Virus record (IMG/VR): IMGVR_UViG_2541047701_000002
Length of the DNA stretch: 35,102 nt
Source of the DNA: a virus
Lineage: Duplodnaviria > Heunggongvirae > Uroviricota > Caudoviricetes
Reading direction: 5' to 3' (one strand)
The notes beneath the pieces are model-generated. The model was not told where the DNA came from. It searched no databases and saw only the letters and a list, made by a program, of their open reading frames with translations. The translations under genes and the position numbers were made by a program. How positions within the stretch are numbered: position 1 is the stretch's first letter; the number at the start of each line of letters is the position of its first letter. This document shows positions 24,641 through 33,754 of the stretch, piece after piece.

Positions 24641-25066
24641 AAGCTGTGTGACGAAGTAACCACTCTTAACAGCATAACCAATTTTTTACGTACGTAAACT
24701 ACTAAATGATATTTGTGAGAATGCCACCGAGTGTTCAAAACACCACCACAAATGCATAAGAAAACTTCAACAAATAACCAGTTAATAATTTCCGACGTTA
24801 TTTTTAGTTTGTTTAAATTAAGCTAAAGAATTATAGAGCACTTATAAATAAGTGCCATTAATATAAATTAGCTAATAGATTTATTTTTGTTCAGACAAGA
24901 GCCATGAATAGGATTAGATAGAAAAGGTTCAGATAAAAATAGAGATCTACTTCACAAATTAAATGAGAAACTAAAACTTACATCTTGAAATAATCACATT
25001 GATTAGATGAATATTTATCGCGCAGTGACATCATTTTTTAATAATAGTTCAAAAAAAGGGCGTACA

Positions 25067-26149
25067 ATGAAAAAATTAACAGTGGCAATTTCTGCTGTAG
25101 CTGCATCAGTACTGATGGCGATGTCTGCTCAGGCAGCTGAAATTTATAATAAAGACAGTAACAAGCTGGATCTATACGGGAAAGTTAATGCCAAGCACTA
25201 CTTCTCCTCTAATGATGCAGATGATGGTGATACTACTTATGCCCGTCTTGGCTTCAAAGGTGAAACCCAAATCAACGATCAACTGACTGGTTTCGGTCAG
25301 TGGGAATATGAATTCAAAGGCAACCGTGCTGAATCTCAAGGTTCTTCCAAAGACAAAACCCGTCTTGCATTTGCAGGCCTGAAATTTGGTGATTACGGCT
25401 CAATCGATTACGGCCGTAACTACGGTGTAGCATACGACATCGGTGCGTGGACTGACGTTCTGCCAGAATTCGGTGGTGATACCTGGACCCAAACAGATGT
25501 GTTCATGACTGGTCGCACTACTGGTGTTGCAACTTATCGTAACAACGACTTCTTTGGTCTGGTCGATGGCCTGAACTTTGCTGCTCAGTATCAGGGTAAA
25601 AATGACCGCACTGACGTAACTGAAGCCAATGGTGATGGTTTCGGTTTCTCCACTACTTATGAGTATGAAGGATTCGGCGTGGGTGCAACCTATGCTAAAT
25701 CAGATCGCACTGACGGTCAGGTCGCCTATGGTAAGAGCAAATTCAATGCCTCCGGCAAAAATGCGGAAGTATGGGCTGCAGGCCTGAAATATGATGCGAA
25801 CAATATCTATCTGGCTACCACATATTCTGAAACTCAGAATATGACCGTTTTTGGTAATAACCATATTGCAAACAAAGCACAAAACTTTGAAGCAGTAGCA
25901 CAATATCAGTTTGACTTCGGTCTGCGTCCATCTGTTGCTTACCTTCAGTCAAAAGGTAAAGACCTTGGTGTTCATGGTGACCGAGACTTAGTCAAGTATG
26001 TCGATGTCGGTGCTACTTACTACTTTAATAAAAACATGTCCACTTTTGTTGATTACAAAATCAACTTAATTGACGATAGTAAGTTTACCAAAACAGCTGG
26101 TATTGATACCGACGACATCGTCGCTGTAGGTCTGGTTTATCAGTTCTAA
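25067..26149 (+). CDS. nmpC: Outer membrane porin, phage Lc / NmpC family (OmpC-like; lysogenic conversion)
   Basis: Start trimmed to [23 protein letters not shown] signal peptide; [17 protein letters not shown]...GLVYQF with C-terminal Phe; typical general porin; opposite strand to the flanking Q and lysis genes. Confidence 0.92.
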
Positions 26150-26806: not shown

Positions 26807-26929
26807 TCATACTCCTGTTCCTGTCAGGGTTTTGGCGTAATTCTTCAGTATTCGGTAATCGGTCAAAACAGAACCGAGGAAACGATATAAGCGCAGACGC
26901 CCCCAGCGGTGGCGAAGAAGTTCTGCCAT
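26807..26929 (-). CDS. ylcG: Small protein YlcG-like (40 aa)
   Basis: Not in the ORF track (under 60 aa); hand-translated MAELLRHRWGRLRLYRFLGSVLTDYRILKNYAKTLTGTGV between rusA and Q as in DLP12; coordinates approximate. Confidence 0.5.
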   Translation of the reverse strand: MAELLRHRWGRLRLYRFLGSVLTDYRILKNYAKTLTGTGV

Positions 26930-26943
26930 ATTAAACTCAAACA

Positions 26944-27306
26944 TCATTCATTCCCCATTTCGGTGATGGTCAGTTCCAGCCTCCCACCTTTGGTAACAGG
27001 CATCTTCACAACGCGGTAATCAACGACCTGAGCATCATCCAGCCAGAAACCTGCTTTAGTGAGTGCGTCAAAAGCGGCTTTTTGCAGATTATCCAGGTCA
27101 CGGCGACGGCGATCCGGCATGTGGCACTCAATGCGGATTTTCACAGGCATAGCCAGGCCGATATCCAGCATTGCGTTTTTAATGATTCGGGCGACGTTAT
27201 CGCGGTATGCCTGCCCCTCTGCGCTGACGTGCGTGCGCCCGCGATTATGGCGGTAATAGCGATTATTGCTCGGAGGCCAGGGTAATGTGATGCTGTAGGT
27301 ATTCAC
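26944..27306 (-). CDS. rusA: Holliday junction resolvase RusA
   Basis: 120 aa, [42 protein letters not shown]... matches RusA; apparent GTG start. Confidence 0.95.
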
Positions 27307-27431
27307 GCCTTAATAACCCCCTCTTTCAGCCACATAACCTGTGTTCTCGCCATACCTTCCAGCGCGCATTCTTTTGCATATGCAGCATCGACTTGCTTGG
27401 CATGCCCTTTACCGGCAATCTTCTGTATGCG
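27303..27431 (-). pseudogene. ybcO: 3' remnant of a ybcO-like nin-region gene (no N-terminal half, no in-frame start)
   Basis: Frame ending in ...[29 protein letters not shown] (stop overlaps the rusA start) matches the YbcO C-terminus as I recall it; upstream in-frame stop codons and no similarity to the YbcO N-terminal part; coordinates approximate. Confidence 0.4.
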
Positions 27432-27512
27432 CTAAACCTAGATAGAATCCACTCTGTGCACATTGAAGCCCGCTCTATGCTTTCTTTCAGGTATTGAAGG
27501 GATTGAGATGGG

Positions 27513-27860
27513 CTAAGCATTATTGGCCTCCTGCATCAGGAGAAAGACAATCATGGCGGCGCGGAGAGGTCTGGTATCAAATATTGGGCTTACGCCTTTT
27601 GCATCCACACACCATTCAGTTAACTGGTCTAAGATAGAAATCCTGTATTTCTCAATAATCGGCCATGAAGCGCTCGGATCATTGCAGTAGTCAGGCAAAT
27701 GATTTAATGGCTCAAAAGTTGTATCAGCATTTCCGTAATACCATTTGTTGGTGTTATTCCCTGATGTTTCCGGTTTACTTGCCCAAAGGCCTTTAAAAAT
27801 TATGTCTCCTACCATTCTGTTAATTTCAAAATCACTTAACTGTGAATAATCCATTGTCAT
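27513..27860 (-). CDS. Hypothetical nin-region protein (115 aa)
   Basis: ATGA overlap with the ninE stop; [31 protein letters not shown]...; no family recognised by eye. Confidence 0.5.
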
Positions 27861-28033
27861 TTCCTCGCACGATATCTTAGCCACCGGATATCCCACAGGT
27901 GGGCTGTGTAATTGAAGGTTTTTACGTCAGATTCTTTTGGGATTAGCTTGCGTTTATTTCTGGAGCGTTTCGTTGGAAGGTATTTGCAGTTTTCGCAGAT
28001 TATGTCGGTGATGCTTCGTCGCTGTCGTCTCAT
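27857..28033 (-). CDS. ninE: NinE
   Basis: Start trimmed to [29 protein letters not shown] (lambda NinE); ATGA overlap with the upstream methyltransferase stop. Confidence 0.88.
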
Positions 28034-28557
28034 GCAGCCCTCCTGACGCCCTGCCCGATCGCCATCAATGCCGCTTTGGATACGGTAGTAAACATCCGTC
28101 GAGGACTGATGAACGGTCGCCAAATCAGCAGCATGGAGCCTTTGCTGTTTCCCTTCTTCTCCAGCCCTGTCGATGGTTCGATAAAATTAATCCGTCCATC
28201 AGTGATAATACGAACTTCGTCAACACTCTCCAGAGCCTTGCTGAACCATCCGACAGACATATCCTCTGGCACAAGCATCACTACCGTCTGTCGCTGTTGT
28301 ATACACTGCTCAGCGGCTTTTTCCACCCACGGCCTGATATTGCTGTACGGTGGGTTATTCCAGATTGCACCGTGGCTTACCCACTCAGAATTGAGCGCGT
28401 CGTCGTCCTCAGTTAGCCAGTGAGCGCACAGAGCATTTTTGTCGCTCGCTGCCGAATCCAGCCAGAATCCAAACTCAATATCCAGTGCATCAAAAAGCCA
28501 AAGCGGCGTTTGCCAGCAGTCCTTGTCGTGTGCTGGCGTATTTGATTTGATAGTCAT
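28030..28557 (-). CDS. Phage DNA N6-adenine methyltransferase (Dam-like, NPPY motif)
   Basis: Start trimmed to [23 protein letters not shown] (ATGA overlap with the ninB stop); catalytic NPPY motif (AIWNNPPYS) and LDSAAS; 175 aa. Confidence 0.75.
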
Positions 28558-28994
28558 GCAGCCCGATCTCCCCATCGCGCTTTCCATTCGAGAGCCAGTC
28601 GCGCTTCGTCTGACCACTTAACGCCACGCTCTGTACCGAATGCCTGTATAAGCTCTAATAGCTCCGCAAATTCGCTTACACGCATCCTGCTGGTTGACTG
28701 GCCTATTACCACAAAGCCATTCCCGGCAAGGTTAGGAACAACATCCTGCTGCTTTAATGCTGCGGTAAACACACACTTCCAGCTTTCTGCATCCAGCCAG
28801 CGACCATGCCATTCAACCTGACGAGAGACGTCACCTAAGCAGGCCCATAGCTTCCTGTTTTGGTCTAAGCTGCGGTTGCGTTCCTGAATGGTTACTACGA
28901 TTGGTTTGGTTGGGTCTGGAAGGATTTGCTGTACTGCGTGAATAGCGTTTTGCTGATGTGCCGGAGATCGAATTTCAAAGGTTAGTTTTTTCAT
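28554..28994 (-). CDS. ninB: NinB (Orf-family recombination mediator)
   Basis: MKKLTFEIRSPAHQQNAIHAVQQILPDPTKPIVVTIQERNRSLDQNRKLWACLGDVSRQVEWHGRWLD near-identical to lambda NinB. Confidence 0.95.
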   Translation of the reverse strand: MKKLTFEIRSPAHQQNAIHAVQQILPDPTKPIVVTIQERNRSLDQNRKLWACLGDVSRQVEWHGRWLDAESWKCVFTAALKQQDVVPNLAGNGFVVIGQSTSRMRVSEFAELLELIQAFGTERGVKWSDEARLALEWKARWGDRAA

Positions 28995-29010: not shown

Positions 29011-29042
29011 AAATAAAAAGGCCTGCGATTACCTGCAGGCCT
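29011..29042 (-). terminator. tR2-like rho-independent terminator between ren and ninB
   Basis: Minus strand AGGCCTGC aggtaatc GCAGGCCT followed by TTTTATTTGGGGG; same position as lambda tR2. Confidence 0.6.
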
Positions 29043-31638: not shown

Positions 31639-31754
31639 ATGCCCTCCATAGTAAACACGAATAAAAAATACAATATGTACTTTGCGAATACAAGTAAAAA
31701 TACACATTGTGCATGGATGGTTCCAGTACAGAGCGTAATAATAAGGACATGAAA
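31639..31754. promoter_or_regulatory. Right operator / divergent promoter region (OR, PR, PRM) between cro and cI
   Basis: AT-rich 116-bp divergent intergenic region with three occurrences of the half-site ATACA(A): ATACAATATGTAC, ATACAAGTAAAAATACA, ATACACATTGTGCAT. Confidence 0.6.
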
Positions 31755-32408
31755 ATGAAATGGTATGAACTGGCTAGATCCAGAATGAAAGAGCTCGGCA
31801 TAACTCAAGAGAAGTTAGCCGAAGAGCTAGGTATGACGCAGGGTGGGATTGGACACTGGTTGCGCGGATCTCGTCATCCATCTCTTAGTGATATTGGTGT
31901 GGTGTTTAAATACCTTGGTATTGATAACATATCATTCAACCACGACGGGACATTTTCACCTGTTGGCGAATACTCATCGGCCCCAGTTAAAAAACAATAT
32001 GAGTACCCTGTTTTTTCTCATGTTCAGGCTGGGATGTTCTCTCCAGAACTCAGAACCTTTACCAAAGGCGATGCGGAGAGATTGGTAAGCACAACCAAAA
32101 AAGCCAGTGACTCTGCATTCTGGCTTGAGGTTGAAGGTAACTCAATGACCGCACCAACAGGTTCCAAACCCAGCTTTCCTGACGGGATGTTAATTCTGGT
32201 TGACCCTGAGCAAGCTGTTGAGCCCGGCGATTTCTGCATAGCCAGACTTGGTGGTGATGAATTTACCTTCAAGAAACTGATCAGGGATAGCGGTCAGGTG
32301 TTTCTACAGCCACTAAACCCACAATACCCAATGATCCCATGCAATGAGAGTTGTTCCGTTGTGGGGAAAGTTATCGCCAGCCAATGGCCTGAAGAGACGT
32401 TTGGGTGA
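31755..32408 (+). CDS. cI: CI repressor, chimeric: novel N-terminal HTH domain plus lambda-identical C-terminal LexA/S24-type autocleavage domain
   Basis: C-terminal ~130 aa ([22 protein letters not shown]...GNSMTAPTG...[46 protein letters not shown]) match lambda cI; N-terminal [38 protein letters not shown] differs; start chosen at the second ATG (AAGGA 7 nt upstream); the ATG 6 nt upstream is an alternative. Confidence 0.9.
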
Positions 32409-32447: not shown

Positions 32448-33005
32448 TTGGCAAAAATAGATGATTATCAGCCAAGCCAAGTAGAAGTTGATAAAGTACT
32501 TTATTGTAAAAAAATAGTTAACTTTTCTGGCGTTAAATGGAAACAGAAACCAAGTCGCTCTGATATGTGGCTACAAGCCCATATCATCCCCTTGGATGAG
32601 GATTGTATACCTATACAAGGGCTAAAGTTTGAACTGAAATGGAAACCAGATCAGGATTCAGAACCTGATGACCCGATTTCTTACCCTAAAATAAATATTA
32701 TTGCTTTCTATCATAACAAGAGGGTTTTCGCGGTAGATACCTATCACTTTGACAAACACACGAATAGTTACAAGGTCGATCATCCGAAGTACCAAGATAT
32801 CATTTACGGTGCTCACTACCATGTATACTATGAAGAAGCTGGATACTATAGTGATAGAATAGCGTTTCCAATCGAAGATGACATAAACCCAGATGACCTG
32901 GTAGGGTATTGGAATTACTTCTGTAAACATCTGAACATAACTTACTCTGGGAGAATACCTTTACCGCTTGAAGATGAGTCGGGGCAAATGGGGTTTGGAA
33001 TATGA
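32448..33005 (+). CDS. Hypothetical protein A of a two-gene cassette downstream of cI (rexAB-equivalent position)
   Basis: 185-codon ORF starting 40 nt after the cI stop; apparent TTG start (first in-frame ATG is 39 codons in); AT-rich; acidic, Tyr/His-rich (HYHVYYEEAGYY); no TM segment; no family recognised by eye. Confidence 0.6.
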   Translation: MAKIDDYQPSQVEVDKVLYCKKIVNFSGVKWKQKPSRSDMWLQAHIIPLDEDCIPIQGLKFELKWKPDQDSEPDDPISYPKINIIAFYHNKRVFAVDTYHFDKHTNSYKVDHPKYQDIIYGAHYHVYYEEAGYYSDRIAFPIEDDINPDDLVGYWNYFCKHLNITYSGRIPLPLEDESGQMGFGI

Positions 33006-33754
33006 TGTGCTCAACAGTGATCTCACAACTAGGTTTCGAATGCCATCCAATAGGCAAGACCTTGAGAATTATCAGTCCATTCACTTACTGTGATGATGGA
33101 GAGCATGTCGGTGCCTTTATCCGTGAAGTCAATGGTAGGTATTTAGTTAGTGACAGATGCGATGCCTTAATGAATATGGAGGCAAGAGGGATCTCGCTTA
33201 CCAAAAAACGACTTGATGAGATACGACAATTACTGCTTAAAGAAGGCGCAGAACTCAATGCTCGAGGAGAAATCATTGCTTGGGCAACAGAAAAGGATGT
33301 CGGTGCGATTACATCGAACATAATTAGAGCTGGTATACTCGCATCAACTTTGTCGTTAGACTGGTATCAGCCAGTTCAAGCTGAAAAGTTTGAAAGTATG
33401 GTTATTGATTATCTATATCACACAGAGCTTAGAGACGCACTTTCTCTTCGTGAAAACGTATATGGCTTGAGTGGACATCAAATTACCGTCCCTGTAACAA
33501 TAAAAACCGACATACCTAAATACGTTTTTACATCAAGCGTGAAACACGGAGGAAGCTGGAATAGTGCTTACTCATTGCTTGGGAAACTAATTGATCTTAA
33601 AGCTTCAAGTGAGGAGTATAACAACAGATTTGTTGTTATAGACAGCGAAGCAATTGGTGATCAAATGCAACAACTCTCCTTACTCTTCCATGAATCAAGC
33701 CAAGTTCTACCATTCTCCAAAAGAGAGACTTGGGTTAAGAGACTTGCAGCATAA
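33002..33754 (+). CDS. Hypothetical protein B of the two-gene cassette (translationally coupled to protein A)
   Basis: ATG overlaps the stop of protein A (ATGA); 250 aa; AT-rich codon usage; followed by a terminator; no family recognised by eye. Confidence 0.65.
   Translation: MMCSTVISQLGFECHPIGKTLRIISPFTYCDDGEHVGAFIREVNGRYLVSDRCDALMNMEARGISLTKKRLDEIRQLLLKEGAELNARGEIIAWATEKDVGAITSNIIRAGILASTLSLDWYQPVQAEKFESMVIDYLYHTELRDALSLRENVYGLSGHQITVPVTIKTDIPKYVFTSSVKHGGSWNSAYSLLGKLIDLKASSEEYNNRFVVIDSEAIGDQMQQLSLLFHESSQVLPFSKRETWVKRLAA

Follow-up and report, generated by a model that had tools for sequence, protein, structure and literature searches.

What kind of enzyme is encoded between ninB and ninE of this lambda-like phage, which sequence would it methylate, and when in the phage life would it be used? 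The window, by which we mean the whole stretch of 35,102 nucleotides that was analysed (IMG/VR record IMGVR_UViG_2541047701_000002), had been described in an earlier note as carrying at this place a 175-residue methyltransferase with an NPPY motif, coupled to both of its neighbours by ATGA overlaps. Checks of the open reading frames, of the sequence itself and of the Pfam assignments found the reading frame, its coordinates, the motif, the overlaps and the ninB and ninE flanks all to be correct. The features on which the argument is built are collected in Table 1.

Table 1. Features in and around the methyltransferase gene; positions are those of the window.
Feature	Position	Strand	Details
Methyltransferase CDS	28030..28557	minus	175 aa + stop; 528 bp; PF05869 / TIGR01712; NPPY at residues 68-71
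ATGA overlap, ninB and methyltransferase	28554..28557	minus	ninB stop TGA 28556-28554 with methyltransferase ATG 28557-28555; read from sequence
ATGA overlap, methyltransferase and ninE	28030..28033	minus	methyltransferase stop TGA 28032-28030 with ninE ATG 28033-28031; read from sequence
GGGGAG, Shine-Dalgarno-like sequence	28568..28573	minus	10 nt upstream of the methyltransferase ATG, within the 3' end of ninB
ninB/orf recombination mediator, upstream neighbour	28554..28994	minus	PF05772, E 1.3e-54
ninE, downstream neighbour	27857..28033	minus	58 aa; PF05322, E 1.8e-41
Intrinsic-terminator-like hairpin	29019..29042	minus	AGGCCTGC..GCAGGCCT then TTTTATTT; between ren and ninB; consensus scan

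The reading frame that ends at 28030 is open, in its longest form, from a GTG at 28617, which would give a protein of 195 aa. Translation from the ATG at 28557, the start annotated in VT2-Sakai, yields the 175-aa protein with the C-terminus GQGVRRAA. Both overlaps are read as 'tcat' on the plus strand, and the GGGGAG sequence within the end of ninB may act as the ribosome-binding site of the methyltransferase gene. For ninB itself the ATG at 28994 is the likely start, while the mechanically called frame begins at a TTG at 29012. The gene order on the minus strand is ren-ninB-dam-ninE-ninX-..-rusA-..-Q; the methyltransferase gene thus sits between P/ren and Q and is joined to its neighbours by ATGA overlaps, which is the arrangement of the lambda nin-region chain. 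Such a chain of stop and start codons is described for all lambdoid nin regions and indicates that translation is coupled (PMC8022706). The gaps in this order are filled by two small frames on the minus strand, one of 64 aa (27326-27520) between ninX and rusA and one of 46 aa (26807-26947) between rusA and Q, neither of which has a Pfam match. No restriction-system nuclease was found in the nin region, where the flanking genes encode NinB, NinE, NinX, RusA, Q, Ren and P. The methyltransferase is an orphan (solitary) enzyme, with no cognate nuclease adjacent to it.

It had also been proposed that the gene stands in place of lambda ninC and ninD, and this is borne out by the position of the BLASTN junctions. 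Homology of the nin region to lambda runs with 96.8% identity through O, P, ren and ninB and breaks off exactly with the ninB stop codon, whose final base is 28554; it restarts at 28026, just within ninE. In the interval lambda has the 1012 bp of ninC and ninD, whereas the window has the 528-bp methyltransferase gene. The comparison with VT2-Sakai gives the reverse pattern, in which only the block of the methyltransferase gene and ninE (27860-28564) matches, with 97.7% nucleotide identity. Taken together, the two patterns indicate that the methyltransferase gene is a mosaic module of the kind usual in lambdoid phages, joined to its surroundings at gene boundaries. The module would comprise the methyltransferase gene together with ninE, and its place is the nin region of a temperate, lambda-like phage. 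In the records of two phages that are nearly identical in other respects, PV340574.1 (PhiR63_2) and LR597651.1 (Lambda_ev058), the match to ninX-ninE-dam-ninB is split into two parts by an annotated transposase or mobile element, which suggests that an insertion sequence landed in or beside the nin methyltransferase module.

The protein belongs to PF05869, 'DNA N-6-adenine-methyltransferase (Dam)', with an E-value of 3.7e-65 and 219.1 bits against a curated cut-off of 28.1 bits; its residues 4-169 cover positions 1-167 of the 169 in the profile. The NCBIfam equivalog TIGR01712, 'phage N-6-adenine-methyltransferase', is matched with 265.6 bits (cut-off 97.05 bits; E 1.2e-79) by residues 2-168, over the full profile (1-165/165), and the protein also matches PHROG 111, 'DNA methyltransferase'. 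It has a large kinship: an exhaustive HMMER search through 1.84 billion cluster representatives returned 8973 relatives at E<=0.001. In the Pfam search of the protein PF05869 was the only hit at E<=0.01, so that no match to PF02086 was obtained; nor was any obtained to the MT-A70 family, and the motif is NPPY, not DPPW. The description 'Dam-family' in the earlier note accordingly stands in so far as the Pfam family is named Dam, and falls in so far as homology to the Dam enzymes of E. coli and T4 (PF02086) is meant. The label 'Dam' is here the name of a different Pfam family together with a shared specificity, not membership in the family of E. coli and T4 Dam.

The alignment of 81 diverse family members, which are 32-80% identical to the window protein, allows the catalytic residues to be followed. 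Five columns are invariant (T17, D34, N68, P70 and R122) and all five residues are present in the window protein, as are all of those in the columns with at least 90% conservation, among them P18, F31, A37, W59, P69, Y71, L95, W104, F125 and N137. Motif IV, N68-P69-P70-Y71, is intact, with N68 and P70 invariant and P69 and Y71 at least 90% conserved. Loss of catalytic residues on alignment had been set beforehand as the sign of a wrong reading; none is lost among the 81 aligned members. Judged by its sequence the methyltransferase gene is intact. Entries that join this methyltransferase to NinE, CII, RusA, NinB or Q domains are numerous in public databases, and so are truncated versions of it (proteins P0002, P0005, P0011, P0016, P0090 and P0121 are among these entries). 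They are probably frameshifts, or errors of assembly or gene calling around the ATGA overlaps, and not genuine fusion proteins.

One could still regard the gene as an inactive relic that is carried along in the nin mosaic, since nin genes are dispensable for lambda plaque formation (PMC10695390) and so many database versions of the protein are broken or fused. Against this, the frame in the window is full length over nearly the entire family profile and keeps all of the invariant residues, its predicted structure is confident throughout, and copies with at least 95% nucleotide identity are found in 1574 records of 1566 E. coli genomes. A relic is scarcely credible on this evidence, and we continue with the reading of an active enzyme.

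Which sequence such an enzyme would act on is best approached through its closest relative. The window protein and VT2-Sakai orf32 (NP_050531.1) have the same length and are identical in 174 of 175 residues (99.4%). The sole difference is residue 51, D here and A in VT2-Sakai, in a column that has no consensus in the 81-sequence alignment. As VT2-Sakai has no other annotated DNA methyltransferase, we take orf32 to be M.EcoVT2Dam, an equation that draws on secondary citations together with this annotation. The VT-2 protein, which differs from ours in one residue, was reportedly cloned and assigned GATC specificity by Radlinska and Bujnicki in 2001. According to Forde et al. (PMC6602927), M.EcoVT2Dam, an orphan enzyme of prophage VT2-Sa, 'is known to target 5'-GATC-3'', and two further papers count the VT-2 methyltransferase among the phage enzymes for which Dam-like GATC activity was shown (PMC7139368, PMC7556043). 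All three cite the same article for the specificity (Radlinska & Bujnicki, Acta Microbiol Pol 2001). The near-identity of the proteins and this secondary literature point strongly to the adenine of GATC as the expected target of the window methyltransferase. The view of the earlier note that nothing is known of its target has therefore been overtaken, since a near-identical enzyme is reported to be GATC-specific. The number of GATC sites in the window, 107 where 135 are expected (ratio 0.79), makes it mildly poor in this tetramer and is uninformative on function.

M.EcoVT2Dam, reported as an orphan and GATC-specific, is also the nearest known system in its setting, as it lies in the same slot between ninB and ninE with the same overlapping starts. 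The context differs in that the ninB allele is another one and in that VT2-Sakai is a short-tailed Stx phage, whereas the phage of the window is lambda-like. More distant members of the family are the Dam enzymes of T1 and HP1. Like the window protein these are small proteins of the PF05869/TIGR family with no recognition domain, and their reported target is GATC. They differ from it by their identity of about 30-40%, by their genome context (virulent T1-like phages, or the P2-like HP1) and by their location outside a nin region. In tblastn, T1-like phages gave matches of 31-37% identity over about 80% of the window protein.

The structure was predicted with AlphaFold2 from the 81-sequence alignment. 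The model is a single domain with a mean pLDDT of 95.3 and a pTM of 0.91, in which a helix near the N-terminus follows T17-P18, a strand (31-34) ends at D34 and another strand (64-67) runs into NPPY; beyond NPPY, helices and strands alternate up to a C-terminal helix (161-174). Motifs X (T17-P18), I (F31..D34..A37) and IV (N68-P69-P70-Y71) can be assigned. As modelled, the methyltransferase is reduced to a minimal Rossmann-type catalytic domain, to which no target-recognition domain is added, and the linear order of its motifs, X, I, (II), IV, V-VIII, would correspond to a gamma-like order from which the recognition domain is missing.

A Foldseek search of the PDB with this model gave as best match the catalytic domain of CAPAM/PCIF1 (6irx; E 6.4e-5, query-normalised TM 0.61, 13-16% identity), and the next matches were other SAM-dependent methyltransferases. 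EcoDam (4rtl_A) appeared at rank 24 with an E-value of 0.079 and a TM of 0.33, a weak and generic fold match, and METTL4 was also weak (E 0.095). By its sequence and its modelled fold the window protein is an N6-adenine methyltransferase. No solved relative from PF05869 was found in the PDB by sequence and family-profile searches. A PDB profile hit to the Mediator subunit Med31 (E about 0.01) was rejected as a false positive that comes from the chance string 'WCNPPYS' alone.

CAPAM/PCIF1 shares with the window protein the N6-adenine methyltransferase activity of its class and is its best structural neighbour. Yet it is a eukaryotic enzyme of about 480 residues that forms m6Am at the RNA cap, with extra helical and WW domains, and only the catalytic core is held in common. 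The Dam enzymes of E. coli and T4 (PF02086, alpha class) are alike in their reported N6-methylation of the adenine in GATC, in the Rossmann core and in the (D/N)PPY motif. EcoDam differs by a dedicated DNA-recognition domain inserted between the motifs, whereas the window protein has none. The GATC target of PF05869 and that of E. coli Dam have been called a convergence of specificity (PMC7556043, PMC7139368). Enzymes of the non-specific Hia5/M.EcoGII type (Drozdz et al. 2012) were considered and set aside as an identity for the window protein, as they have DPPY, are kin of EcoDam, DpnM and T4Dam with a divergent recognition domain, and are not members of PF05869.

A second kind of phage 'Dam' needs to be kept apart. 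The MT-A70 enzymes (M.EcoGV/M.EcoPA8orf6770P) are also prophage-borne orphans with a GATC annotation and can share a prophage with a PF05869 enzyme. They differ in that they have DPPW and are encoded elsewhere, as gp5, co-transcribed with gp6 and gp7, and in that they prefer 16S rRNA together with PNB-2 (PMC10810198). The rRNA methyltransferase of Stx phages described in that work was therefore ruled out as the identity of the window protein; with its DPPW motif and its place as gp5 next to PNB-2 it is another gene.

These comparisons raise the question whether the enzyme, perhaps aided by a partner protein, acts in the cell on something other than GATC in duplex DNA; RNA, single-stranded DNA and a relaxed sequence context come to mind. 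The closest solved fold is that of an RNA cap adenosine methyltransferase, the AlphaFold2 model contains no recognition domain, and a precedent is at hand in M.EcoPA8orf6770P, which was annotated as a GATC Dam and, in complex with PNB-2, prefers 16S rRNA (PMC10810198). However, this precedent is of a different family (MT-A70, with DPPW) and is encoded elsewhere in the genome, GATC methylation is reported for the near-identical M.EcoVT2Dam, and the likeness to CAPAM, at a TM of 0.61 and 13-16% identity, is that of a shared catalytic core only. The T1 and HP1 relatives are GATC enzymes as well. We hold a substrate other than duplex GATC to be highly improbable. It is also very unlikely that the substrate extends beyond duplex GATC to replicating or single-stranded phage DNA or to RNA, or that an oligomer or partner would be needed to read GATC. 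The grounds for considering this are that PF05869 lacks a solved structure, that the best structural neighbour is an RNA-cap enzyme and that a Dam-annotated enzyme of Stx phages acts on rRNA. The GATC-directed DNA enzyme remains the preferred reading. How a protein with no recognition domain reads GATC, and what phages gain from duplicating the specificity of the host Dam, are questions of the whole family and are not specific to this locus.

Both the gene and its label are already in wide circulation. Identical or near-identical copies of M.EcoVT2Dam are found in Phi24B, HK97, 933W-type Stx phages and many E. coli prophages. The product of the 528-bp 'dam' CDS of Phi24B matches NP_050531.1 with 100% identity and the HK97 protein with 99% (PMC3342100). 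At the nucleotide level the 528-bp gene of the window is 100% identical in phages ev207, ev017 and PhiR57_1 and in E. coli Nissle 1917, ATCC 11775, NU14 and many other strains, and the copies with at least 95% identity occur in 1566 of 5426 complete E. coli genomes (about 29%). The E. coli genomes that carry it have it labelled in RefSeq as 'phage N-6-adenine-methyltransferase'. Among phage records, the 1.6-kb neighbourhood has matches in 431, and tblastn with the protein returned 1906, of which 244 are at 95% identity or more, including many Stx1- and Stx2-converting phages. The window as such is close to phages PhiR63_2/PhiR57_1, with 99.9-100% identity over 97% of 24.9 kb. The gene is, in short, an already known one, a very common, annotated and characterised small adenine methyltransferase of lambda-like phages; with a RefSeq annotation and a presence in more than a quarter of the complete genomes, it carries little weight as a discovery.

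The remaining question is that of timing and use. The methyltransferase gene lies within the pR operon, after cII, O, P and ren, and the terminator-like hairpin between ren and ninB, a strong one that is followed by a run of T on the coding strand, is, from its position and from established lambda biology, the likely equivalent of lambda tR2. In lambda, the genes behind tR2 belong to the delayed-early class and need antitermination by N. Being likewise behind a terminator of the tR2 type, the window gene is probably a delayed-early lytic gene. No sign of a private promoter was seen around the gene, where promoter-like sites are no commoner than in shuffled sequence (7 vs 7.4). From the operon position and this null result, expression is expected mainly after induction or infection. 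Translation would proceed from the delayed-early pR transcript, with the start overlapping the ninB stop. This expectation agrees with findings in Phi24B, where dam is expressed and its mRNA level changes significantly on induction (PMC3342100).

It might instead be supposed that the enzyme acts mainly in the lysogen, where low expression from the prophage would supplement the host Dam and so stabilise lysogeny or alter host gene expression. In favour of such a role, an antiserum specific for lysogens detected the identical dam product of Phi24B in cultures of lysogens (PMC3342100). Yet these cultures also contain spontaneously induced cells, the expression of Phi24B dam is itself altered by induction, and the window gene lies in the pR operon behind the tR2-like terminator, with no promoter-like signal above chance. 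Moreover, the host already methylates GATC, and methylomes of carrier strains show no new motif (PMC6602927). Given the position of the gene, a main role in the lysogen is less likely than a lytic one, and we consider it unlikely. The suggestion of the earlier note that the enzyme may alter host methylation in lysogens has to be reduced for the same reasons: as the host Dam shares the GATC target, the window enzyme would add no new motif to the lysogen methylome, and the gene is behind the tR2-like terminator in an operon that is repressed in the prophage.

The lytic reading to which we return can be given a more definite content. The function of phage Dam enzymes is, according to the literature, not well understood (PMC7556043). 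In lambda, only about half of the GATC sites have been methylated by host Dam when the DNA is packaged (PMC3299994), and on infection by T1 adenine methyltransferase activity rises, as does the m6A content of the T1 DNA (PMC3620542). These two observations suggest that topping up GATC methylation is the most likely and most economical role. The product of the gene, predicted to be an active DNA N6-adenine methyltransferase that uses S-adenosylmethionine and acts on GATC, would supplement the limiting host Dam during lytic growth, so that the fast-replicating phage DNA would be fully methylated at GATC before it is packaged. Full methylation may protect the DNA against nucleases that cut unmethylated GATC, and may also keep Dam-dependent phage processes working in Dam-poor hosts. 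As a whole, the explanation of an active SAM-dependent orphan enzyme that methylates N6 of adenine in GATC, is an allele of M.EcoVT2Dam and tops up methylation in the lytic cycle is, in our judgement, very probably right.

Some other features of the window were noted along the way. The tetramer CTAG is almost absent: base composition predicts about 135 copies and 4 are present, which we take to be the CTAG avoidance typical of enterobacteria. For the other 4-bp palindromes the ratio of observed to expected lies between 0.53 and 1.77. A general porin gene of 380 aa (25007-26149, plus strand; PF00267, E 2e-151) stands between Q and the lysis genes and faces the opposite way to the late operon. 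It is annotated in related phages as OmpD/NmpC/OmpC and appears to be the familiar NmpC/Lc-type porin of lysogenic conversion by lambdoid prophages. The cI-like repressor (31707-32408) is followed on the same strand by two genes (32448-33754, plus strand), one with a DUF1828 domain and the other with a weak, sub-threshold match to DUF6978. They occupy the position of rexA/rexB in lambda and, by analogy, may be exclusion or defence genes expressed from the prophage.
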